This document shows positions 720 through 49,513 of a stretch of 64,000 bases of DNA, piece by piece (position 1 is the first letter of the stretch; the number at the start of each line of letters is the position of its first letter). The notes beneath the pieces were generated by a model, which worked only from the letters and a program-made list of their open reading frames with translations, searched no databases and was not told the origin of the DNA. Source of the DNA: Terriglobia bacterium (GTDB lineage: Bacteria > Acidobacteriota > Terriglobia > Acidiferrales > UBA7541); contig OY968796.1 in assembly GCA_963695545.1 (NCBI GenBank), forward strand, positions 2,656,001-2,720,000, read 5' to 3'. Made by a program: the position numbers and the translations under genes.

Positions 720-2252
720 ATGAATATGAATCGAAGAGAATTTCTGGCCTCGGCCGCGGCCCTCGCCGCGGTCCGCGCGCGTCTCGGCCGGCCGCAATCG
801 CCGGAGCCATCGCACGGATTTCCGGCGTCGGTCTTGCGAAACGATTCCTCCTACGTTGAGGACCCGCCCGTTGCCGGCTACCACTGGGCTTCGGCCAGCG
901 CTTACGAAGCGTTCCAGGACATGAAGTTCGGCATTCGCATTCATTGGGGCATTTATTCCATCTGGCATCGCGGAGCGGAGTCGTGGCCGTTCCTGCCGAT
1001 GTCGTTCGATGACCGGCAGACCTACAACAGCCTTTACAAAACCTGGAACCCCGCGGGCTTCGACGCAGATGCGTGGATGGATGCATTCAAGGAAAGCGGC
1101 ATGAAGATGTTTGCCTTCACCACCAAGCACCATGAAGGTTTTTCGATGTTCGACACGAAGACCAGGGTCAAGAACCGCGCAAACTGGACGGCACCAGGCG
1201 GTCCGGCGATCGAATCGTGCGATCTCTCCTACTCGATCATGGAAACTCCGTTTCGCCGCGATGTCGTGAAGGAACTCTGCGACGCGGCGCACAAACGCGA
1301 CATCAAGATCGATCTCTACTTTTCTCATCCGGATTGGTATGACGCAGACTTCCGCCCGTACGTGCAGCATCCGCTGCAGGTTCCGTCCTCGGCGCAGTTG
1401 CAAATCCCGAGTGATATCGCGAGAACGCGGCAAATTTACGACGATCATGCGGTGATCGTTGCCGATCCAACCGATGCGGAAGTGACGCGCATGATGGAGC
1501 GGCATCGCGCGCAGCTTGTGGAGTTGCTTACCAACTATGGAAAGATCGACATGATGTGCCTGGACATGTATCTCGGTCCGCGCGTCTGGCCGGAGATGCG
1601 CAAGACGGTGCTGAAACTTCGCGAGATACAACCCGACGTGATGCTGCGCAATCGGGGCATCGGCGATTACGGCGATTACTACACGCCAGAGCGCGTGGTT
1701 CCCGGCTCGAAAGGATCCTCGGACAAGCCGTGGTTTTGTATTTATCCGCTTGGCACGGATTTCTCATATGAAGCCGACGCCTCGAAATACAAAGGCACGC
1801 AGTGGATTATTCAGAATCTCGCGGACACCGTGGCCAAAGGAGGCGGCCTGATGATCGGAGTCGGCCCCAGCGCGTACGGAGAATTTCACCCTGAGCCGAT
1901 CCGGCAAATGAAGGGCGTTGGCGCGTGGCTGAAGGTCAACGGCGAAGCCATCTACGCGACTCGCCCGCGCGACGGCACGGATTGGTCCGAAGGCGATTCG
2001 ATTCGCTACTCCAGATCGAAAGATCGCCGGTTCGTTTACGCGATCCTCACTCAATGGCCGGGGACACAACTGAAGTTGAAGTCCGTGCAGCCCAAAAGCG
2101 GTTCTGAAGTGACGCTCCTGGGATCGAACGCCGCGCTCACGTGGAACTTCGACTCCGCTCTCGGAACGACGATTACGCTGCCCGAAAGTTTGCAGCAGCC
2201 TGCAAACCGGCCGTGCGAATACGCCTGGTGCTTTAAGATCGAGGCGATCTAG
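720..2252 (+). CDS. Tat-exported alpha-L-fucosidase, GH29
   Basis: NRREFL twin-arginine signal; KFGIRIHWGIYS, FTTKHHEGF, LYFSHPDW, ELLTNYGKID and GAWLKVNGEAIYATRP motifs; AGGAG upstream. Confidence 0.9.
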   Translation: MNMNRREFLASAAALAAVRARLGRPQSPEPSHGFPASVLRNDSSYVEDPPVAGYHWASASAYEAFQDMKFGIRIHWGIYSIWHRGAESWPFLPMSFDDRQTYNSLYKTWNPAGFDADAWMDAFKESGMKMFAFTTKHHEGFSMFDTKTRVKNRANWTAPGGPAIESCDLSYSIMETPFRRDVVKELCDAAHKRDIKIDLYFSHPDWYDADFRPYVQHPLQVPSSAQLQIPSDIARTRQIYDDHAVIVADPTDAEVTRMMERHRAQLVELLTNYGKIDMMCLDMYLGPRVWPEMRKTVLKLREIQPDVMLRNRGIGDYGDYYTPERVVPGSKGSSDKPWFCIYPLGTDFSYEADASKYKGTQWIIQNLADTVAKGGGLMIGVGPSAYGEFHPEPIRQMKGVGAWLKVNGEAIYATRPRDGTDWSEGDSIRYSRSKDRRFVYAILTQWPGTQLKLKSVQPKSGSEVTLLGSNAALTWNFDSALGTTITLPESLQQPANRPCEYAWCFKIEAI

Positions 2253-2257
2253 GCGTC

Positions 2258-3391
2258 TCATTTCTTAGGAAACGCTTTCCCCAGAGCCGCGAGCTGATCG
2301 AGGAACGGCTGGGTGATCGTTCCGTCGAGTTCGACCGGAACGTCCCACGTGACGGAGCCGCCGTAATCCCTGATCACTTTGGTGTAGGCCAAGACTTGAT
2401 CCGTGGTGAAGCGAGGCGTGCCGCGGCCCCAGGTTTCCCCGAGAAAACTGAGCATGTGAATTTGCGTGCCGTCCACGCGGCCGTTCACTTGCCGCGTCAC
2501 GCTGACCAAATCAACTTTATTGATTTCGCCGGCGGTGAAATCCTCCTCGGGGCTCACTGAGAGGATGCGATATACCACGCCGGGATTGAACGCCACGCTC
2601 GAATCGGGGTTGCCCGCGCGCGCCGCAGCCGCGAAGCTCGCGAAATTCGGCGCGTTGGCGCCGCGATACATCGAATTGGGAAAGTAGCAGCCGTCGAACC
2701 ACCAGCCGACAACTTTCGTGCCCCAGCGTTTTGACCAATCGGCGATGATCATCTCCCACTTGCGCTGGAAATTCTTGTTTGGATACGGGCCGTTCAGCCA
2801 TTCAAGTGCGGCTTTGGCGTCATTGTCTTGGTTGGGCGCGCCGGAAGGGAGATAGACCATCAGCTTGATGTCGCGCCGGCGCAGCGGCTCGTAGAAATCC
2901 GCGATCAGATCCCGGCGCGAGCATTTGCTCGCCTCGATTCCGGTAATCTTGTCGTACACCGAATTCGGAGAAGCGTAGTAACCCGAGTTTTGGCCGATGC
3001 TGATCTGATAGTGGCCCGCGCCGACGGAATCAAGCCGCTTGGCCATGGCCTCGACGTCGAATCCATCCACGAGTCTGTTCCACACGTCGACGTTCATATC
3101 TAGGTTGTGGATTTTCGCCTGCCAGCCGGCGAGATAGTGCGTCATCACGCCCCAGCAGTAGCGCGGATCCTGCATCCACGCGGCGCGGCTTGATCCGGGA
3201 TAGAGCGCTTGCGGCGGCGGACCGACGTCAAGCGGCGGGGAGGAAACGGGATCGGCGGGTTTCGCGTCGGTTGGAGGCGACGTCTGCGAGCTGCCCGCGG
3301 AGGGAAATGCACGCAGGGGAAGAGCGCTCGCGGCCACAGCAGCGCTCGTACCGATCATCCAATCGCGGCGCGATATTTTCCTGAGGCCCAT
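2258..3391 (-). CDS. Tat-exported glycoside hydrolase, GH29/fucosidase-like TIM barrel
   Basis: SRRDWM Tat signal; RRDLIADF, IKLMVYLPS, RWGTKVVGWWFDG and AFNPG motifs; GGAG RBS upstream. Confidence 0.65.
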   Translation of the reverse strand: MGLRKISRRDWMIGTSAAVAASALPLRAFPSAGSSQTSPPTDAKPADPVSSPPLDVGPPPQALYPGSSRAAWMQDPRYCWGVMTHYLAGWQAKIHNLDMNVDVWNRLVDGFDVEAMAKRLDSVGAGHYQISIGQNSGYYASPNSVYDKITGIEASKCSRRDLIADFYEPLRRRDIKLMVYLPSGAPNQDNDAKAALEWLNGPYPNKNFQRKWEMIIADWSKRWGTKVVGWWFDGCYFPNSMYRGANAPNFASFAAAARAGNPDSSVAFNPGVVYRILSVSPEEDFTAGEINKVDLVSVTRQVNGRVDGTQIHMLSFLGETWGRGTPRFTTDQVLAYTKVIRDYGGSVTWDVPVELDGTITQPFLDQLAALGKAFPKK

Positions 3392-3640
3392 GGGTATTTG
3401 CTCCCATCTCGATCTGCACGAGAGACCCTTACTCGCGTGCCAGAGTCGGAAGACGTGCCGTCGCTATATAGAGACGCTGGGGGAGGCCGCGAACGTTTCG
3501 TATTTTCTGAAAGCTTCGTTTTGGAGTCTGAAACTTTCGATCTGCACCTTAAAAAGTTACGGGATTCGAGCGCGGACTTGTGATAAGCAGAGATGTTGCA
3601 AACTTCAGGGCCCTGCCCGGAACGGGACGGCGACGCGAGA

Positions 3641-6064
3641 ATGGACCGAGACCCCGGATCAATCGACAAATCGAAGAGAAGGAAAATTGTTCGAGTATCC
3701 TCATTGATCCTCGCTGCGGTCCTCGCCGCTCTCGCGATGTCGGGCGCGGGACTGAGCACGGCGCGCGCCTCGGAACTCGACGACGATTGGGCCGCAATCC
3801 AGAATTTCCTCGGTGGGCTGAAGGGCGTGGTCACCACGCCGCCCGAGGGAATTGTGAATCAGCGCTACAGCGCCGGCTTGCTTATGGGCAATGGCGATAT
3901 CGGCGTCGTCGCCGGCGATACGACTTCCGATCAGAAATTTTATTTCGGCAAGAACGATTTCTGGGGCACGGCGCCCGATAACACCCATCCCGAATACCGG
4001 CCGGGTGTGCTCTCTCTCGGCGGGCTCACGATCAGTTCGCCCACGCCGAGCCCCAATCCCGATGCCGTTTATCGCATGGAGCAGGACATCCTCCACGCGC
4101 AAGTGACCACCACGATGCAGCTGGGCAACACCGTGGTCACGATGCGCTCGTGGACCGCGGATACCGACAACGTGTTCATCACGGAATTTTCGAGCGCAGC
4201 CGGCAGCGCGGCCGTTCCGATCAACGTGCAGCTGTGGATTCCACCGAACAAAGTTTATCCCTATGCGAGCGGCGAATCGGATGGCGCTCTGTGGATCACG
4301 CGCACAAATAATTTCTCGGGCGCAAACGATTTCATCGCTCGCGCCGCCATTGCCGTGCGTTTGCTGGGCACGCAATTTTCATCTCCCACGACTGGCGACG
4401 GCACCGCCAGCGGCACTTTCACGCTCGCGCCCGGAGTGCCGGTTCGCCTGGTGGCCGTGTTTCGCAGCGACGCGCGCACCGGACCCGCCGGTCCGACGAC
4501 GGACGCTTTGAGGCAACAGGCGCTCGCAGCCGCGGCGAGATCGAACACACCTGCCGTCGATGCATTCTGGGCAGGGCACCTCGCGTTCTGGAAAAGCTAC
4601 TGGCTGCGCTCGTACGTTCGCGTTTACGACGACCTGCTCGAGAAGTATTACTACGGAGCGCTGTATGTGCTGGGCTCGTCGACGCGGCCACACAAATTTG
4701 TGCAGACTCCGATGTTTGGCCCGTGGGTGACGACCGATATGTCCAAGTGGGGCGCGCGGTATTTCGACAATTACAATGTGGAAGCGCCGTATTACGGAAT
4801 CTTTTCCGCGAATCGCCCGGATTGGATTTTGCCTTACACCAATTTCGTTTTCGCGGAAGAGCCGTTTCAGCAGAACTACACGGCGATTGCGGGTTACAAG
4901 GGCGTGGCGTACACGCGCAGTTTTCCGCCGTTCGATCAGTATGCTCCGCGACCCGCGCCGGTGTCGATCGCGGAGGGCAAGGACTACACCAGATTCGGCT
5001 CAAGCGCCGATCAGAAGTCCGACGGCACGTTCCTCACGATTCCGGCGATTTGGTATTGGGAGTACACGCGCGACGATGTCTATTTGAGGAAGCGTCTGTA
5101 TCCGCAGCTCAAGGCGCTGGATGCTTTTTGGCGCGATTTTATGGTTTGGGATGGCAAGCGCTACGTGATCGAGGGCAGTTCGGCGCACGAAGGGCTGCCG
5201 GTGGACACCAATCCCAATCTCGATCTCGGATTTTTCCGGAAAGTGGAGAAGACGCTGATTGAAGCGAGCGGCGTGCTGGGCGTCGATTCCAATATGGTGC
5301 CGGTGTGGCGCGACGTGCTCGCGAAGCTGAGCGCGTATCCCACCGAGACGTACAACGGCGTGGAAGTTTTCACCATCGCCGAAGTCGTGAACAACGACAG
5401 TCATCGAGTGTTTGAGCCGTCGGGACAGCCGATCGACATGGAAGGCGTGGTTTTCCCCGGCGAAGACCTGGCGGTCGGCGGCGATCCGAAACTTTTGAAG
5501 ATCGCGATGGACACGCTTACGCAGATGAATTCCTGGGGTTCGACGCCGGGCTCGAACAGCACCAACGGTTTCCAGAAGGAATTTCCGATCGCCGCGCGCG
5601 TTGGTTGGCCGGGCGACGATCTGCTGGTGAAACTTCGCGCGGCGATCCTTTATCACTGGCGCGAGAGCAACCTGACGGTGGCGCATCAATCCGGCGGCAT
5701 CGAAACGGCCGGCACGATGGAATGCATCGACTCGATGATGCTTCAGCACGAAAACGGCGTGCTGCGCATTTTCCCGGTGTGGCCGACCGACAAGGATGCG
5801 ATGTTCAAGCGGCTGCTGGCGAAGGGCGCGTTCGAGGTCTCGAGCGAAATGAAAAATGGGGCGATTCCTTACGTCGACATCACGAGCGAGAAGGGCGGGG
5901 AATTGACGATGCAGAATCCGTGGCCCGACGCGAAGCCGACGATCGAGCGAATCGATCCCGCGACGCGCGCGAAGATCGCTCGCGTGAGTTACACGATGGA
6001 TGCCGGCAATTTGGTATTCACGACCAAGCCCGGCGAACGATATTTGATCACGCCGCAACATTAA
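3641..6064 (+). CDS. Secreted GH95-like (alpha/alpha)6 glycoside hydrolase
   Basis: Signal peptide; LLMGNGDIG, HLAFWKSYW, NYNVEAPYY, MMLQHENGVLRIFPVWP and FKRLLAKGAFEVS motifs. ORF opens at 3593; ATG 3641 preferred, start uncertain. Confidence 0.7.
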   Translation: MDRDPGSIDKSKRRKIVRVSSLILAAVLAALAMSGAGLSTARASELDDDWAAIQNFLGGLKGVVTTPPEGIVNQRYSAGLLMGNGDIGVVAGDTTSDQKFYFGKNDFWGTAPDNTHPEYRPGVLSLGGLTISSPTPSPNPDAVYRMEQDILHAQVTTTMQLGNTVVTMRSWTADTDNVFITEFSSAAGSAAVPINVQLWIPPNKVYPYASGESDGALWITRTNNFSGANDFIARAAIAVRLLGTQFSSPTTGDGTASGTFTLAPGVPVRLVAVFRSDARTGPAGPTTDALRQQALAAAARSNTPAVDAFWAGHLAFWKSYWLRSYVRVYDDLLEKYYYGALYVLGSSTRPHKFVQTPMFGPWVTTDMSKWGARYFDNYNVEAPYYGIFSANRPDWILPYTNFVFAEEPFQQNYTAIAGYKGVAYTRSFPPFDQYAPRPAPVSIAEGKDYTRFGSSADQKSDGTFLTIPAIWYWEYTRDDVYLRKRLYPQLKALDAFWRDFMVWDGKRYVIEGSSAHEGLPVDTNPNLDLGFFRKVEKTLIEASGVLGVDSNMVPVWRDVLAKLSAYPTETYNGVEVFTIAEVVNNDSHRVFEPSGQPIDMEGVVFPGEDLAVGGDPKLLKIAMDTLTQMNSWGSTPGSNSTNGFQKEFPIAARVGWPGDDLLVKLRAAILYHWRESNLTVAHQSGGIETAGTMECIDSMMLQHENGVLRIFPVWPTDKDAMFKRLLAKGAFEVSSEMKNGAIPYVDITSEKGGELTMQNPWPDAKPTIERIDPATRAKIARVSYTMDAGNLVFTTKPGERYLITPQH

Positions 6065-6134
6065 GAAGCACCAGTGCGAACTGCGGAACTCACGAAATGA
6101 GTTTCAAGATGTGCTTCGGTGGGCCGAGAGCCCC

Positions 6135-6465
6135 CACCCCCGGGTACCCAGTTCGTAAAAAACTGTAATCAAAGGACTTCCAGGAAAAGTGTGACGTAGC
6201 AGTGCGCAATTGCCTGAAACTAAGAGGCTTACAGGATTTGCTTTGCTCTTTGTTTTCAATAAGATGCGCACACTTTTGGAGGAGTGTGGATCGAGCTGAA
6301 AACAAAAGGTTTGCAGGGTCGATTTTGTATCGAAAACCGCGGACGGAATGCGGATCGCGCGGGGAAATTGCCCACGGATTCAGCGGCGAGGATGTGCGTC
6401 CTCGTGTCATGCGCAAGCATAGCACAGTGGTATAACGCGTGTCAATTACTTTCTGGTTATTCGAA
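6135..6465 (-). repeat. Dispersed intergenic element, copy A (promoter, four degenerate repeat units, CACCCCCGG end)
   Basis: Same architecture and motifs as 48867-49187; see findings. Confidence 0.7.
6416..6445 (-). promoter_or_regulatory. sigma70-type promoter TTGACA-18-TATGCT with extended -10 TG
   Basis: Plus strand TGTCAA at 6440-6445 and AGCATA at 6416-6421; equivalent motif in the second copy. Confidence 0.6.
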
Positions 6466-6509
6466 CAGGTCGGCCATGCGATCATGCGCCTGCGGCGGAC
6501 ACACTGATC

Positions 6510-6549
6510 AAAAACGCGAAGCGGCCCGAGCTTCCGGGCCGCTTCGCGT
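6510..6549 (-). terminator. Intrinsic terminator of the TonB receptor gene
   Basis: 15-bp stem ACGCGAAGCGGCCCG/CGGGCCGCTTCGCGT with an A-run at 6510-6514 (U tail on minus strand), about 20 nt past the stop codon. Confidence 0.85.
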
Positions 6550-6570
6550 GTTCGGGGTTGGGGTGAAAGG

Positions 6571-9500
6571 TTAGAACGCGAACTTCACGGCCATCTGCAA
6601 TTCGCGTGGCGTGCTGGCAATCGCCTGAATCGCAGCCGCGGTTCCGTAGCTGATTGTGCCGCTACTGAACGAGGGAGCGATGCTCGGCGCGCTGGTGCCG
6701 CCCGTGGACCCGGGAATGGCCCAGACCACATGGTTGAACACGTTGAAGGCCTCGAAGCGGAATTGCAGCGTCTTGGTGTCGCTCAGTCGGAAGTTCTTCA
6801 GCAGCGAGAAGTCCACGTCGTTGAAGTTCTGCGATCGCAAGCTGCCGATCTGCAAGGTGCCGAAGCCGTAGCCGGGTCCAACGGTCGGCGAGGCGGGACT
6901 GATATAGCACGCCGGGTTGAACCACTCTGTGAGCGTGCCTTTGGGAACAGCGCAGTTCGGCAAGAGATCCGGACGGCTGTAACCGGTGATGGATTCCGCG
7001 GAATTGGTCAGGTTCGCCGGATCGGTGCTGGTGGGCGCGTCGCCTGCGATCGAAGCCGGCACGCAACTTGTGGTTACCGGAGTCGTGGCGTCGGGCGCGC
7101 AAAGATTGCTGGCACCGCCCCAGGTTGGGTTGAACGCCTGACCCGAGCGAGCCAGGAAGGAGAAGTTGGTCTCCCAATTCCCGACGATCCAGGATAGCAG
7201 CCCGTGGTTCACCCACTTTTCTCCGCGGCCAAAGGGCAGGTCGTAGACCGCGCTCCAATTGAAGAGTTGCGGAATGTCGTAGGCGCAGGGTCCATACGAG
7301 AGAGATTGGTTGAAGAAATACTCGTAGGGCGCGCCTTCTCCGCCGTTCTCAGCATTGAACTGTCCGTTGGCATTGCCAAGGCACCTCGACCATGTATACG
7401 CGATGAGTGTTTCGAGTCCGTGCGAAAAGCGCTTCTGGTATTGGGCTTGAAGCGCGTTGTAGTTAGAGGAGCCGGTACTCTCGGCGTAGTTTAATGCCTG
7501 AGCGAACGGCATGTACTCCGTCTGGTTGATTTGCGCCTGGGTCAACGGCGTGGTCGGGCAGGTGAAGCCCTGATTCGCGTTGTTCTCGCAGAACGGGCCG
7601 CCTTGCGGGTAGTTGATCTTGCAGCACCAATCGAGCCGCGCGGTTTTGCTTCCGACGTAGGCCACCGAGAACATCGAGGAAGCGGTCAACTGGCGCTCGA
7701 TTTGGAGGTTCCATTGCTGCGAACGCGGGTCGCTATAGTTCGGAGCGTTGGTGTAGCCGCCGAACGTGGAACCCCACGGTGTGGGCGCGATGACGATCGG
7801 CAGGCTTCCGCTCAAACCCTGCAGATTGGAGGTGCTGTACCCGCCGTAAGGGCCGCAAGAGGCGGTGCTGTAACAAATCGGGTTGACCGTCGGCGAAGGT
7901 GCGGCATTTTGCTCGGCGGTGTTCAGCGTGTCGGAAACACCTCGCGTCCAGGGCCAGACGGAGCCCTGAAGCGTGTTTTCTGCGTACTGACTGCGGTAGC
8001 TGATCGTGTCGTAGTAGATGCCATAGCCGACGCGCAGAACGGTGTTGTGCGTGAACTGCCAGGCGAGCCCAAGCCGCGGGCCGACGTTGTCGCTAATGGC
8101 CTTCAGCGCCGGTTGATTGCTTCCGGAGAACGAAATGTTGTTGAGCGTGTTGTAGGTGACGCCGCCGACGGTGACATTGAATGCCGCGTTAGAGCTTGAG
8201 AGCCCACCGGGGACGCACGGTGGAGCGACGGTGGTCGTGCAACCGGTGGAATACGCAGCGGTGTCCGCGGATCCGATGACGAACTGCTTGGCCGGGTAGT
8301 TGTAGGCGTTGATGGTCTCGCCGTCGCTGACCAACAGATATACCGGCGGGACGTAGTCATAACGCAGACCGATATTCACCGTGAGTGTCGGCTTGATGTG
8401 CCAGTTGTCCTGGGCGAAAAAGCCGATAGGCTCCATGGCGACGTGAACTTCTTCCAGCTGTGGCACGTTCACCGTGAACGCGGAAGGAAGATCAAGAAGC
8501 ATCGAAGCCAGGCCGTTGCCCTCGGCGCCGGAGCACGCGAAGTTTCCGGAACTGTTCGTCGGGCAGGTGTCGCTGGCACTGGAACTGAACTGCTCGTAGA
8601 GGTTGGTCTCGAGGCGATTCTCGTAGAGATATTCGCCGCCGAACTTGAAATTGTGATTGCCGTGGATCCAGGTCACGGTGGCGTTGAAATCGTGTTCTGG
8701 ATTCGCGCGATGCTCCGGGCCCACGTTGCCGATCACCGTGGGATAGCCGCTGGCCGGGCTCAAATAAAATCCATCGGTGGAGGAGAGCCCTGAGAAACCG
8801 GCGGTCGATTCGGGACCGTCGCCGGCCGAGTTGGTCTGATTGACCACGACGGGGCGCGAGTTGATGCCTCCGCGGACGGACAGAATCAGGTTGGGCGTGA
8901 AGACGTGGTCCCAAGCGCCGCCGATGTTCCAAGTATGGTAAGGACTGGGCGCAAGGGAGGTGGTTCCGGCAACGATTGACGTCGTGGTGTCCCACATCAT
9001 GTAGGCCCTGCCCATGATGGTGTCGTGGTTCCCGAAGTGCTCGTCAATGCGGGCGTCCATGTTGCTGTTGAGGTCGGTCTTGGGACGCGAGTCCAGGCAA
9101 TTGTCCACGGCAGAGGCGTAATTGGGCGTGAAGGAGCAGTTCGCGAATTCCGGCGCGGTGTAGGCCTTGATCACGGATGCGAGCTTGGTGTCGATCAGAG
9201 CCGCGGGAATCACGTTGCACGGAAAGCCGGCCATCTGTACGCCATAGCCGGAAGTGCCGAACGTCGCGGCCGGGTTCACCAGCGGCTCGGGCGTGGTGCC
9301 GCCCGATGCGGTGCACTGAAAGGGAATCGCCGAACTCGGGGAACTCTCCGCGAATGGATTGTAAAGCTGATTCGGAGTTACGCCGGTTTTGGTGGAATTT
9401 ACGGAGCCGACAAGTTCCGGCGTAACCGTTCCGCTGAAGTCACCAGAAAGTTCCTGGGTGGTCGGATCGATCGTGAAACTGTTGGTGGGCTGCGAGAAAT

Positions 9501-10539
9501 GCCAGCCTTCATATGCGAGGAAGAAGAACATTTTGCTTTTGCGAATCGGGCCGCCCACCATGCCGCCGTATTCGTTGATCGAGTATCCGAGTGGAGAAAC
9601 AGGTGTGCCGGAAAGTTGAGCTGCGGTTTCGGTTCCCGCAGCAACGGCCGCCGCGCCCGCCGGGCATGTCGCCGCGGTGCAGAATCCGTTGAACGGGTTG
9701 CGCGCGTCGAAAATATTGCTGCGCGCAAAATCCCAGGCCGCGCCATGGAGTTCATTGGTGCCAGACTTGGTGACGATGTTCACGACAGCACCGAGAACGT
9801 TGCCGTACTGCGGATCGTCGTTGTGGCCCTGCAACTTCACTTCCTGGACGGTGTCCGTGATCGGGGGCACGGACCAACCGCCGCCGCGATCGTCGGTATC
9901 GATAATTCCATCCATGTAGAACGCATTGGAGCGGTTTCCGGCGCCGTTCACCGCGGGCCGATAGACGATGGTGTTTGGAATTCCGATGTTGCCGCCATCG
10001 GCGCTGCCGATGCCGTTTCCGCCCTGCGCGGTGTTCACGGGGCTGACGCCGGGTTGGAGAATCAGGAGTTCGGTGAAGTTGCGGCCGTTGAGCGGCAACT
10101 CGTGCAGAGATTCCTCGTCAAGAAGCGTGCCGAGCTCGGTGCTCGAACTCTGAATCATCTGGCCGATAGCCGAAGCGCTGACGGTCACGGTTTCGGTTGG
10201 AGCCCCGACCTCCAAAGTCAGTTTCTCGGTGAGGGTCTGGTTCACGTCCAATGGGAAGATAGGCAGAGCGAGCGTCTTGAATCCTGTCCTCTCCACCGTC
10301 AGGACGTAGCTGCCGGGCAAAAGATTGATGATCGTAAACGCGCCATCGCTGTTGGTGATTTTTTCGCTGGTAACGTTCGTCGCTACGTTGGTGATTTTAA
10401 CCGTGGCACCGGGAACAATTGCACCCGAACTGTCCAATACGGTGCCGGTGACGGTGGCTGTCGGCGTCTGGGCGTATAGGCCGGTACAGACGAACAGCAC
10501 CGCGGCAGCGAGCAACATCACTGACTTACATGAACGCAT
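6571..10539 (-). CDS. TonB-dependent receptor, Oar-like, with carboxypeptidase-regulatory-like N-terminal domain
   Basis: Signal peptide; GTVLDSSGAIVPGATV, LPLNGRNFTEL, VTKSGTNELHG, GPRLGLAW, LQFRFEAFNVFNH, terminal PRELQMAVKFAF; GGAGG RBS. Confidence 0.93.
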   Translation of the reverse strand: MRSCKSVMLLAAAVLFVCTGLYAQTPTATVTGTVLDSSGAIVPGATVKITNVATNVTSEKITNSDGAFTIINLLPGSYVLTVERTGFKTLALPIFPLDVNQTLTEKLTLEVGAPTETVTVSASAIGQMIQSSSTELGTLLDEESLHELPLNGRNFTELLILQPGVSPVNTAQGGNGIGSADGGNIGIPNTIVYRPAVNGAGNRSNAFYMDGIIDTDDRGGGWSVPPITDTVQEVKLQGHNDDPQYGNVLGAVVNIVTKSGTNELHGAAWDFARSNIFDARNPFNGFCTAATCPAGAAAVAAGTETAAQLSGTPVSPLGYSINEYGGMVGGPIRKSKMFFFLAYEGWHFSQPTNSFTIDPTTQELSGDFSGTVTPELVGSVNSTKTGVTPNQLYNPFAESSPSSAIPFQCTASGGTTPEPLVNPAATFGTSGYGVQMAGFPCNVIPAALIDTKLASVIKAYTAPEFANCSFTPNYASAVDNCLDSRPKTDLNSNMDARIDEHFGNHDTIMGRAYMMWDTTTSIVAGTTSLAPSPYHTWNIGGAWDHVFTPNLILSVRGGINSRPVVVNQTNSAGDGPESTAGFSGLSSTDGFYLSPASGYPTVIGNVGPEHRANPEHDFNATVTWIHGNHNFKFGGEYLYENRLETNLYEQFSSSASDTCPTNSSGNFACSGAEGNGLASMLLDLPSAFTVNVPQLEEVHVAMEPIGFFAQDNWHIKPTLTVNIGLRYDYVPPVYLLVSDGETINAYNYPAKQFVIGSADTAAYSTGCTTTVAPPCVPGGLSSSNAAFNVTVGGVTYNTLNNISFSGSNQPALKAISDNVGPRLGLAWQFTHNTVLRVGYGIYYDTISYRSQYAENTLQGSVWPWTRGVSDTLNTAEQNAAPSPTVNPICYSTASCGPYGGYSTSNLQGLSGSLPIVIAPTPWGSTFGGYTNAPNYSDPRSQQWNLQIERQLTASSMFSVAYVGSKTARLDWCCKINYPQGGPFCENNANQGFTCPTTPLTQAQINQTEYMPFAQALNYAESTGSSNYNALQAQYQKRFSHGLETLIAYTWSRCLGNANGQFNAENGGEGAPYEYFFNQSLSYGPCAYDIPQLFNWSAVYDLPFGRGEKWVNHGLLSWIVGNWETNFSFLARSGQAFNPTWGGASNLCAPDATTPVTTSCVPASIAGDAPTSTDPANLTNSAESITGYSRPDLLPNCAVPKGTLTEWFNPACYISPASPTVGPGYGFGTLQIGSLRSQNFNDVDFSLLKNFRLSDTKTLQFRFEAFNVFNHVVWAIPGSTGGTSAPSIAPSFSSGTISYGTAAAIQAIASTPRELQMAVKFAF

Positions 10540-10974: not shown

Positions 10975-12447
10975 ATGAATATCACGCAAGCTCCTGGAAC
11001 CACAGAACTTGGCGGGCCTCCTCCCGAGGAGATTCAGAAGGAGTTAACCCGGCTTATCCATTCGAAAGCGTTTCGCCACTCGGCCGCCCTGCAGCGATTG
11101 TTACAGTACTTGATCGGCAGAGCCATCGAGGATCCCTTCGGGGACGTCAAGGAATACACCATCGGGACCGAGGTATTCGATCGAGGTCCCGGCTACGATC
11201 CCCAGACCGATACGATCGTCCGGGTTCAAATCCATCGATTGCGACTGAAAGTAAAGGAGTACTACGAATCGGAGGGGATCAACGACCCGATTTTCGTGGA
11301 CATTCCGAAGGGTCACTATATTCCCACGTTCGAGAGCCGGTCGGTTGCGGTTCCTAAGGCAAGCCAAACGAATGTCTCTGCCGAAACCATCACAACGCCT
11401 ATCGGGGGCCTTGACGCGGGTCCGAAGGAAGCGACACGCCCTGCATTTTTCACGCGAGGTGTTTTTCTGATCCCCGTGATCATGTTGATCTTTGCATCGG
11501 GAATTATTCTGGGCACGCGATGGGAACAGTCGCGGGTCTTGGCGACGAGCGATGCAATATCGAACCGCGCGGCATCAGCCGGCCTTGGCACGAGCGATGC
11601 GGCGGCGAGTTTCTGGAAAAGTTTTCTTGGCAGCGATTCTGCGCCGGTACTGGGATATGCGGACGCGGTCTATCTGGTTGACGGGGCGCAGGACCTGTTC
11701 CGATTCAGGCGCGGTGCGAGCGACAACCAAGGCACGCTGGTCGAACCTCATTTGGCTGAAGAATTCGCGTCCAGCCCATCGCTGGTCAAGCAGGCCGGTC
11801 CGCTGTATTACGAGGACGGCAACACGGGGACGGGAGATCTCGAAAGCGTCTTCGTCCTGACGCGGCTTTTCACGCAAATGGGCGTGCAAATGACGGTGAA
11901 GCGCTGCCGGCTGATGACCATAGACGACTTGAAGCAGCACGACGTCATTTTGCTGGGCTCGCCGGAGGAGAACGACGCGGTCGCGCAGCTGCCGCAGGTC
12001 GCGGATTTCGTGTGGACTCGACTAAATGTGCCCGGTCCGTGGAAGGGAGAATTCGTAAACAGCCATCCGCAACCGGGGGAGCGGCTTACGTACCAAACGG
12101 AACGCGATCCGAACACGCAGGAAGTGACGGCAGATTATGGCCTGATCACGCTTGAGCCGGGCGCGCTGCCGGGGCGATATATCGCAATTCTGGGCGGACT
12201 CGATACATCGGGCGTGGCGGGGTCGGCGCAATTCTTGACGTCGCCGTCACACATGTCCGAGCTGGAAGCGCGGCTGAAATCTCTTAGCGGGTGGGCGGGT
12301 GATGGTCCACCGCCGTCGTTTCAAGCGTTGCTGCGAGTGGCAGTGGAGAAAGGGCACGACGTTCTGGGAGTTCAACTAATAACCGTGCATCTGACGACCC
12401 CGGACAAAAACAGCGTGGGAACCACGCCGAACTCGGGCACTAAGTAG
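10975..12447 (+). CDS. Putative membrane-anchored one-component transcription regulator (N-terminal wHTH-like domain, one TM helix, extracytoplasmic domain)
   Basis: SKAFRHSAALQRLLQYL..KEYTIGTEVFDR..DTIVRVQIHRLRLKVKEYY..IPKGHYIPTF N-terminal domain; TM segment VFLIPVIMLIFASGIILG. Regulator function is inferred. Confidence 0.7.
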   Translation: MNITQAPGTTELGGPPPEEIQKELTRLIHSKAFRHSAALQRLLQYLIGRAIEDPFGDVKEYTIGTEVFDRGPGYDPQTDTIVRVQIHRLRLKVKEYYESEGINDPIFVDIPKGHYIPTFESRSVAVPKASQTNVSAETITTPIGGLDAGPKEATRPAFFTRGVFLIPVIMLIFASGIILGTRWEQSRVLATSDAISNRAASAGLGTSDAAASFWKSFLGSDSAPVLGYADAVYLVDGAQDLFRFRRGASDNQGTLVEPHLAEEFASSPSLVKQAGPLYYEDGNTGTGDLESVFVLTRLFTQMGVQMTVKRCRLMTIDDLKQHDVILLGSPEENDAVAQLPQVADFVWTRLNVPGPWKGEFVNSHPQPGERLTYQTERDPNTQEVTADYGLITLEPGALPGRYIAILGGLDTSGVAGSAQFLTSPSHMSELEARLKSLSGWAGDGPPPSFQALLRVAVEKGHDVLGVQLITVHLTTPDKNSVGTTPNSGTK

Positions 12448-48722: not shown

Positions 48723-48866
48723 CGTCCTGTTGCGTCAGCGAGATTTGTAAACCGGCAGAATCGCCCGGCGGGATTCTTGTATCACAGCGGGCGAGGGGGG
48801 TAATCCATCTTGCGTAGCATGGCGCCAAATTGGCCGGACGGTGGGTCGCCCCGAGGGGCGTATATA

Positions 48867-49187
48867 CACCCCCGGTATATTTTGCGAAAGTATTGAAAAT
48901 GCAGGGTTTGCAGGGAAAGAGTGCGGATGAGTGTGAAAAGGCAAGGAGTTAAAAGCCATGCTTTTCAGTGAGTTGCGCACTCTTTTGCAATCGATTGAAA
49001 ACAAAGATGCTTGCAGGGGGGCTCTGAGTGCTAAGAGTGCAGATTTGCGGTGCGATCGGCGCAGGGCGAGACGTGCTTCGGGGCACAACGAGAGTTGCGC
49101 GGAGGGCAATTCGAATTGAATTCGGGCGAACACGAAGCAGGATAGCATGCGTGTGTAGAAGTGTCAATAACTAAATAAGTATTCGAA
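48867..49187 (-). repeat. Dispersed intergenic element, copy B
   Basis: Same order of motifs as 6135-6465; see findings. Confidence 0.7.
49139..49167 (-). promoter_or_regulatory. sigma70-type promoter TTGACA-17-TATCCT with extended -10 TG
   Basis: Plus strand TGTCAA at 49162-49167 and AGGATA at 49139-49144. Confidence 0.6.
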
Positions 49188-49513
49188 ATAATTTCCACAG
49201 GGCGGCGACAACCGGGCGGCGGTAGGTTTTCGGACGGAGCGCGTTCGGCCGGCCCGCGTGCGGACGACGAGGCGCGGCGAAGCCCGGGGGAAATTTCGGA
49301 TATGTGGGCGGGCGGGGCGGTGATAGTATAACGATCCAAAGGACTTGTGTGGCCTGGAAGCGGGCGCGTCAGATAGGGTGCTGACGGCCGGCGGAGTGTC
49401 CTGGCGAAGCGAGCCGGGGAATGCGGAACTCGGACCGCGGCAATTTGATGCTGCGGGTGCCACCGTATGTGCCTCGAAGCACGGGCACAGGCGCCGCGAA
49501 GGCTGCAAGTCAC

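Follow-up and report, generated by a model that had tools for sequence, protein, structure and literature searches.

Dispersed promoter-array cassettes in an acidobacterial genome and their possible role as packaging-start sites for a phage-derived gene cluster

The genome of this bacterium (G000, a single contig of 4.16 Mb) contains about 113 copies of one cassette, made up of TTCGAA boxes, a strong sigma-70 promoter, a start codon at the predicted +1, a rigid repeat array and a GC dyad end. The analysis established the anatomy, copy number and spacing of the cassettes, the selection for an open frame, the sites shared between species, a partner gene, the tail which its product shares with the product of a phage-like cluster, and the vertical inheritance of that cluster. 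By analogy with the TerS of SaPIs, we propose with moderate confidence that the cassettes are packaging-start sites and that the partner protein is a substitute small terminase which would recruit the cluster's terminase. A wider proposal, put forward more tentatively, is that more than 100 start cassettes, placed about one capsid-load apart, form a self-propagating grid that steers an acidobacterial GTA, the cassettes being an integrase-free satellite of that GTA.

Anatomy and copy number of the cassettes

An initial annotation of the window, i.e. the whole 64-kb stretch of DNA that was analysed, had described two copies (A and B) of a dispersed element. Both loci were re-checked and every feature was recovered: the left-end site (6135-6146 in A, 48867-48877 in B), the TTGACA -35 hexamer on the minus strand (6440-6445 and 49162-49167), the -10 hexamer (6416-6421 and 49139-49144; extended TG, 10 of 12 consensus matches), TATTCGAA located 12 bp beyond the -35 hexamer (6458-6465 and 49180-49187), the four array units and the terminator of the TonB gene (6514-6549). 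Shuffled sequence yields 0.4 promoter sites of this quality per region. Copies A and B are related above chance: nhmmer with copy B as the sole query retrieved copy A with E=1.4e-6. The count of two copies had to be revised to 114 loci in the genome, and the promoter of copy A, which had been thought to have no gene to drive, is followed by a leaderless ORF that crosses the whole element, as it does in copy B. This ORF, the genome-wide spacing, a second array type and a partner gene tied to a phage-derived packaging cluster had not been mentioned. The features of the two copies are as follows.

Copy A, 6458-6465, minus strand: TTCGAA operator-like box 12 bp upstream of the -35, possibly a LexA-type half-site
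Copy A, 6416-6445, minus strand: sigma-70-type promoter, TTGACA-18-TATGCT with extended TG
Copy A, 6090-6410, minus strand: leaderless ORF of 106 aa, ATG 5 nt past the -10 hexamer
Copy A, 6320-6407, minus strand: variable C-rich segment, which determines the reading frame of the array
Copy A, 6151-6318, unstranded: type-I repeat array, dyad arms at 6198-6206 and 6267-6275
Copy A, 6135-6146, unstranded: GC-rich dyad end site (TACCCGGGGGTG on the transcript strand)
Outside the cassette, 6514-6549, minus strand: terminator of the upstream TonB-dependent receptor gene
Copy B, 49180-49200, minus strand: composite box TATTCGAA...TTTCCACAG
Copy B, 49139-49167, minus strand: promoter, TTGACA-17-TATCCT with extended TG
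Copy B, 48735-49133, minus strand: leaderless ORF of 132 aa, GTG start, array frame different from that of copy A
Copy B, 49110-49125, unstranded: second TTCGAA box, just within the transcript
Copy B, 48880-49017, unstranded: type-I repeat array, dyad arms at 48917-48925 and 48976-48984, 50-bp spacer
Copy B, 48867-48877, unstranded: GC-rich dyad end site

The leaderless ORF of copy A covers the variable region and the array as well as the end site, and has no Pfam match. The GC-rich dyad at the end of copy A is a candidate cut or initiation site. The host site of copy A (720-10539 of the window) reads as an ordinary glycan-use locus with glycoside-hydrolase-like genes and a TonB-dependent receptor.

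An iterated array model detected 90 arrays in G000 with E<1e-5. The union of all searches gave the 114 loci, 57 on each strand, a number which includes the second half of one IS-split copy and two promoter-only matches; no replichore or strand bias was found among them. The same promoter was paired with 85 of 91 type-I arrays, at a distance of 240-700 bp, and some 20 further promoters drive arrays of a second type (type-II), ending in a similar GC site. Arrays are diverged, with a median nearest-neighbour identity of 75% (n=81). The cassettes measure 240-700 bp and carry at most one extra gene each, most being gene-less.

A strict promoter pattern search of 151 genomes showed that the cassette is present across the family of this bacterium, with 0 to 77 matches per genome and genome-specific promoter subfamilies; the reversed control gave mostly 0-4 and at most 8 matches per genome. 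BLASTN with the element found it in 5/5 genomes of the same genus and 0/35 others, and the range beyond the genus is therefore based on the pattern and protein searches. IMG/VR contained neither the partner gene nor the exact type-II unit; its 33 promoter-pattern matches, none with an array, were judged to be due to chance. In the open full-text literature, no description of the repeat, of the partner family or of an acidobacterial GTA was found; the accessible part of a report on acidobacterial prophages (PMC5900883) mentions neither the repeat nor the partner family.

Insertion sequences were seen in some arrays. Three of five IS1595-like transposase genes are located inside type-II arrays, with short duplications at two, and a fourth at a lone unit-like site (G000:C1 247.5 kb, 343.6 kb, 3686-3689 kb and 2003.3 kb); in G106 (L261) an array is also interrupted by an IS. 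Other short multi-copy repeats found genus-wide occur at L033 (~4300-4335) and L037 (~7765-7820 and 11180-11230).

A SINE-like retroelement was also considered and rejected: no RVT_1 match was found in G000 (94% complete), and nearly all copies keep the promoter and operator upstream of +1.

The open reading frame and the repeat array

An ATG or GTG codon was found exactly 5 nt past the -10 hexamer in 102 of 105 promoters. The -35 and -10 positions were set without reference to the start codon; the HMM used to find the loci covered the start-codon position, however, so that an independent control was needed. Among 31 other TTGAC-TGYTA promoters, one had a start codon at that position and it proved to be a missed cassette.

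Of 83 type-I copies, 78 kept the frame set by the start codon open as far as the end site, compared with 19 and 13 copies for the shifted frames and 0-1 for the antisense frames; in-frame stop triplets numbered 7, against 118 and 168 in the shifted frames. The same was found in G003 and G004 taken together (open in 22/26 copies, shifted frames in 0 and 0; 26 of 60 loci had a scorable end) and in G106 (24/25, shifted frames 1 and 6; 25 of 29 loci scorable). The fixed array is read in one frame in 36 copies and in another in 29; the remaining frame, which contains stops, is never used. With two different frames in use there is no common peptide. Openness did not depend on the next gene (same-strand in 74 of 105 copies): the frame was open in 24/25 copies facing a convergent gene and in 54/58 followed by a co-directional one. 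Past the end site it continued into convergent genes for a median of 1193 nt, compared with 77 and 103 nt for the other frames (n=27). No enrichment of in-frame fusions to downstream genes was detected (10 versus 11 and 7, of 65).

These sequence comparisons indicate that the unit is selected for keeping an open reading frame, its protein sequence not being conserved. We infer that the selected trait is unbroken translation across a C-rich transcript, transcription itself being presumed. Translation shields bacterial transcripts from Rho. To our knowledge no pac site has been found to be under selection for a long open frame, which speaks against the packaging reading discussed below.

A distance of 49 or 50 bp separates the two dyad arms in 68 of 76 copies, copy A being a 60-bp variant. 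The arms showed no covariation, with 0 double changes at arm positions among 68 copies. The positions between them include conserved mismatches (C-C, T-T, C-C and A-A), most inner positions being unpaired, and the median folding z-score was -1.1 (24 copies, against mononucleotide shuffles). No Rfam match was obtained in the 64-kb window at the gathering score, in agreement with the initial annotation, which had recognised no named family. The structured RNA reading was dropped because the dyad does not covary.

A structured ncRNA family, one of the interpretations first offered, or a family of small functional peptides could still be argued from the promoter which nearly all copies possess, from the 10-bp perfect dyad and from the start codon at +1. 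The near-invariant arms without compensatory change, the internal mismatches, the weak folding and the selection for an open frame speak against an RNA, and the use of two array frames speaks against a peptide; as the primary function either is very improbable and largely refuted. The rest of that interpretation fared better: a stand-alone unit with its own promoter and non-autonomous behaviour were both supported, and the array is probably a protein-binding one. It was not identified as an array of IHF sites, for which the consensus is WATCARNNNNTTR: 7 of 330 unit cores agreed with it strictly and 113 under relaxed conditions.

The motif TTCGAATA is largely confined to the cassettes, 147 of its 176 occurrences in the genome being within 200 nt of a cassette start. 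In the cassette promoters, N7 was the commonest half-site spacing (39/105), other spacings giving 5-30 and shuffles 4.5. The acidobacterial LexA box is GTTC-N7-GTTC, and the lexA promoter of G000 contains ATTC-N7-ATTC. A genome-wide scan for a LexA-type box was unspecific, and for this reason LexA control of the cassette promoters is put forward only as a lead. A composite TTCGAA...TTCCACAG box was also seen upstream of genes read from sequence as recG and dnaB (G000:C1:757238 and 811426), which suggests that it may be the site of a host regulator.

Placement of the cassettes in the chromosome and between species

The mean gap between cassettes is 36.5 kb. The coefficient of variation (CV) of the gaps was 0.564, compared with 0.983±0.088 for random intergenic placement, and none of 20,000 draws gave a value as low. 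Pairs less than 25 kb apart numbered 31, where 77.5 were expected, and the exclusion was equal for both orientations. Some 98% of G000 is within 40 kb of a cassette. In the second complete genome, G106, the CV was 0.79 (p=0.14, not significant) for a strict subset of 29 copies. The largest cassette-free stretch of G000 (G000:C1:2218668-2358993, 141 kb) has lexA inside it.

Shared sites were analysed for 30 of the 50 G003 matches and 30 of the 34 G004 matches. Among the matches that had an orthologous flank, a G000 cassette was found within 1.5 kb for 21/28 (G003) and 12/25 (G004), where about 8% would be expected by chance, and 20 of the 21 and 12 of the 12 shared sites, respectively, had the same orientation. 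The orthologous copy was the best BLAST match in only 3/21 and 1/12 cases, in a 105-copy database which lacked one (G003) and three (G004) of the orthologous G000 copies. At least five G003 sites carried the other array type, as assigned by a rough classifier. The ligA site (gene read from sequence) is filled in G000 and G003 and occupied by different DNA in G004, and G001, G002 and G005 have an empty site. Cassettes often occupy equivalent positions in sister species and yet differ in content.

These patterns could also come from a DNA transposable element that is non-autonomous and depends on a host transposase acting in trans, such as a REP-associated HUH enzyme, with the partner protein as a targeting or regulatory adaptor and the spacing as target immunity. 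We consider this unlikely. The variation from 0 to 77 strict matches with genome-specific promoter subfamilies, the empty sites at ligA, L099 and L120, and an exclusion that disregards orientation would all agree with such an element, as would REP-like repeats located within 280 nt upstream of 16/105 copies (17/654 control gaps) and a RAYT-like gene, read from sequence, about 1.3 kb from one copy. However, terminal inverted repeats and a sharp common 5' end are absent, the two ends of the cassette (promoter boxes and GC dyad) being unrelated to each other; the alignments viewed, of species only about 80% identical, showed no target duplication; and no full cassette contains a recognisable enzyme. 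Shared sites with the same orientation in two other species would be unusual for random insertion, and the terminase-like tail described below would be left unexplained.

At L037:1843-3624 (G000 ~1198.8-1200.6 kb) a RAYT-like HUH transposase gene is located between REP-like repeats, ahead of a gene pair that may consist of a bacterial toxin C-terminal domain and its immunity gene. The group stands directly before a cassette and is absent from this position in G001.

We regard as rather improbable a domesticated host network, in which binding sites of the zinc-finger protein would organise the nucleoid or give stress-inducible read-through and their contents would turn over by gene conversion. 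Conserved sites, even spacing, the prevalence of same-strand next genes and the similar composite box upstream of the recG- and dnaB-like genes all suit it, but strict promoter matches are almost absent from many genera of the family, which lack the partner gene as well. Also against it, the frame is open alike before convergent and co-directional genes, and in-frame fusions are not enriched.

The partner gene, the phage-like cluster and known systems

Four G000 cassettes are followed by a Shine-Dalgarno sequence and the ATG of a gene of one family, coding for 139-170 aa; these are its only strong members in G000. The product, here named the partner protein, has a CCCH finger and a helical hairpin. 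The family comprises 664 matches and 2,676 representatives, and its relatives belong to Acidobacteriota, Terriglobia and Candidatus Acidiferrum/Acidiferrales. The gene was present in 57 of the 151 genomes in 1-13 copies, a lower bound obtained by scoring 25 candidates per genome. Among 31 GTDB partner loci with at least 400 nt upstream, the cassette promoter preceded the gene in 10, compared with 0 of 25 control windows; an end-like motif was found at 26 of the 31, a count made without control windows. The gene occurs in 28/30 genomes with at least five strict promoter matches and in 29/121 others, related genomes not being independent. One high-copy genome, G149 of genus g9, has 20 strict promoter matches and no partner gene was found in it; it is the only one of this kind.

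No convincing Pfam or PHROG family could be assigned to the partner protein, and no TerS family was among the matches of 86 members. Its predicted fold (pLDDT 75.8) gave nothing at E<=0.001 against BFVD and PDB, and is still compatible with a TerS fold; the best VIA Z score was 6.1, to generic helical hairpins.

G000 has one phage-like cluster of roughly 30 kb with a single TerL (G000:C1:3386666-3418384, L189-L191). TerL, the major head protein and the endolysin were identified by family matches and the portal by position only; a rep-like gene is adjacent (E=3e-4). PF03237 finds a single TerL in G000, whose proteins gave no match to the PF03354 terminase. Of the 151 genomes, 103 contain the cluster, and capsid and TerL were each present in 97, nearly always once. 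Capsid identity was 74-92% in most genomes. In a tree of the 30 best-scoring of the 97 capsid sequences each of five genera formed one clade (supports 97-100), and silent changes outnumbered amino-acid changes (89:23, 123:25, 124:29 and 50:2). The flanking genes are common to four genera and different in g9, and none of the five tyrosine recombinases of G000 is near the cluster. By these comparisons the cluster is a single-copy, vertically inherited locus at a fixed position and under purifying selection, as is characteristic of a GTA.

A small gene of the cluster codes for 92 aa in G000, where it is located downstream of the capsid gene; its short product has no zinc finger and shares its C-terminal tail with partner P0001. 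Eleven other genomes gave a match, and nine of them have the gene within about 1 kb upstream of terL (seven read, two placed by coordinates); of the remaining two, one is displaced as in G000 and one is probably spurious. PHROGs gave nothing useful. The nearest Atlas clusters of the small gene include tailed-phage proteins (0.95; two of the top three), and among named families DUF5681 is the closest. DUF5681 clusters are Atlas neighbours of both the small gene and the partner, and DUF5681 is a structure neighbour of the partner too. In one phage genome, re-oriented to start at terL, a DUF5681 gene is CDS 88 at 46.9-47.4 kb, which may correspond to a TerS position (PMC8954984).

Profile-profile comparison of the partner and the small gene aligned 18 columns (E=2.4e-5, probability 75.6), the homology being confined to the tail. 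With the pattern used, 99/266 partner homologues had the tail motif, as did nine of the 3160 proteins called in G000, three of which are partner or cluster genes; partner P0002 of G000 has an acidic tail instead. The TerS of RcGTA has no specific DNA-binding domain (PMC7947584). In lambda it is the C-terminal part of TerS that binds and recruits TerL (PMC6739421), and pac SaPIs redirect the TerL of the helper by means of a LexA-controlled TerS of their own (PMC5052747).

By this analogy, the packaging-start reading would operate as follows. The cassette would be transcribed, perhaps under LexA, and translation of the leader ORF, in whichever frame, would keep RNA polymerase moving across and past the array (anti-Rho). 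The zinc-finger protein would bind the arrays, and its tail, common to the putative small terminase of the cluster, would engage the cluster TerL, leading to cutting at the cassette and packing of the neighbouring host DNA. Copies without the gene, A and B among them, would rely on the partner protein in trans. In the grid version, each cassette would be armed by its own promoter and leader ORF, be served in trans by the swap-in small terminase and spread by biased packaging, so that the genome becomes tiled for transfer. In the packaging-start reading itself, DNA starting at a cassette would be transferred preferentially and recombine at orthologous flanks or at other cassettes, which would account both for the shared sites with different contents and for the local exclusion.

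Within genus g14, the cluster was present in 16/22 cassette-rich and 2/16 cassette-poor genomes (p=3e-4; related genomes not independent), in support of this reading. Against it, no association between cassettes and cluster was seen over the 151 genomes (23/30 versus 80/121, p=0.38), and 4 of 18 high-copy genomes (G018, G077, G096 and G157, all drafts) showed neither capsid nor TerL. In genus g9, the capsid was found in 41/49 genomes and the partner gene in 0/49. The restriction of the tail to a minority of partner homologues, the acidic tail of one G000 partner, a homology of the two families that is confined to the tail, the non-significant spacing of the strict G106 subset, the displacement of the small gene in G000 and an IS3 between the putative portal and the capsid gene in the same cluster are further difficulties, and the cluster loci scanned contained neither an array nor a promoter. 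One-way packaging does not obviously predict an orientation-blind exclusion, and the origin of new sites is unexplained by the packaging model. A cos-to-cos variant was rejected on the mixed orientations of the cassettes and on the PF04466/PF03237 domains of the TerL homologues.

Inducible origins of replication or amplification which feed the GTA-like cluster, with an iteron-like array, a DnaA-box-like TTTCCACAG, transcriptional activation and the partner as initiator adaptor, are in our judgement distinctly improbable. The tail indicates a terminase module rather than replication and no AT-rich unwinding element is apparent in the cassette sequences. The rigid repeats, the strong read-through selection and the rep-like gene adjoining the cluster are in favour of origins; the resemblance of the CCCH finger to the primase/MCM10 zinc finger (11/86 members, best E=2.4e-4; PDB E=0.027), which also favours them, is weak and generic.

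If the packaging-start reading is true, the cassettes would represent a GTA with discrete, heritable start sites together with a parasite of a GTA, neither of which was found in the literature searched. What keeps GTAs in genomes, and which DNA they carry, would become testable, and a large unrecognised route of gene exchange would exist in the abundant soil Acidobacteriota, given the number of genomes with the cluster. Even without packaging, more than 100 diverged copies repelling each other within 25 kb, an ORF selected as open without a conserved product, and sites common to species with different contents fit no family known to us. The cassette family also accounts for a class of spurious 'hypothetical proteins', and the partner brings to light a large protein family without Pfam assignment.

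On the features tested, the cassette appears to be outside the MITE, PICI, retroelement and Rfam families. It resembles MITEs, REPINs and BIMEs in being small, intergenic and non-autonomous and in its lineage-specific expansions, and differs from them in having neither terminal inverted repeats nor REP hairpin ends, in copies only about 75% identical to the nearest, in the promoter, start codon and open frame which are kept, and in mutual exclusion. DNA uptake sequences of Neisseria and Pasteurellaceae are short uptake motifs which can accumulate through biased transfer and recombination; for the cassette, the bias would act at packaging and the signal is a composite cassette. The pseudo-pac sites of P22, nine of which are reported for Salmonella (PMC11260489), direct packaging from the chromosome, as is proposed for the cassettes, and may be selected. 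Those sites are short look-alikes of the phage pac site, whereas the cassettes are 300-bp structured units equipped with a promoter, an open frame and a protein of their own; they outnumber the P22 sites more than tenfold and are overdispersed.

The cluster resembles RcGTA-type GTAs in its single copy, vertical inheritance, head and tail genes and TerL at a fixed locus, and in having, at the position of TerS, a short gene for which no DNA-binding domain is evident. Packaging by RcGTA is near-random and does not begin at discrete sites (PMC7947584); the system proposed here would have discrete dispersed start sites and a separate specificity protein. A parallel also exists with pac-type SaPIs and PICIs: an element-encoded TerS substitute would use the TerL of a helper, and operon I of SaPIs is LexA-controlled (PMC5052747 and PMC6739421). 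Unlike these elements, the cassette has no integrase, excisionase, replicon or att ends, the five tyrosine recombinases of G000 being located elsewhere; there are about 113 mostly gene-less cassettes per chromosome, the unit being 0.3-0.9 kb; the putative helper is a domesticated single-copy cluster; and the likeness of the partner to a putative TerS is in the tail. With these differences, the cassette probably acts as a dispersed and reduced counterpart of the SaPI packaging module.
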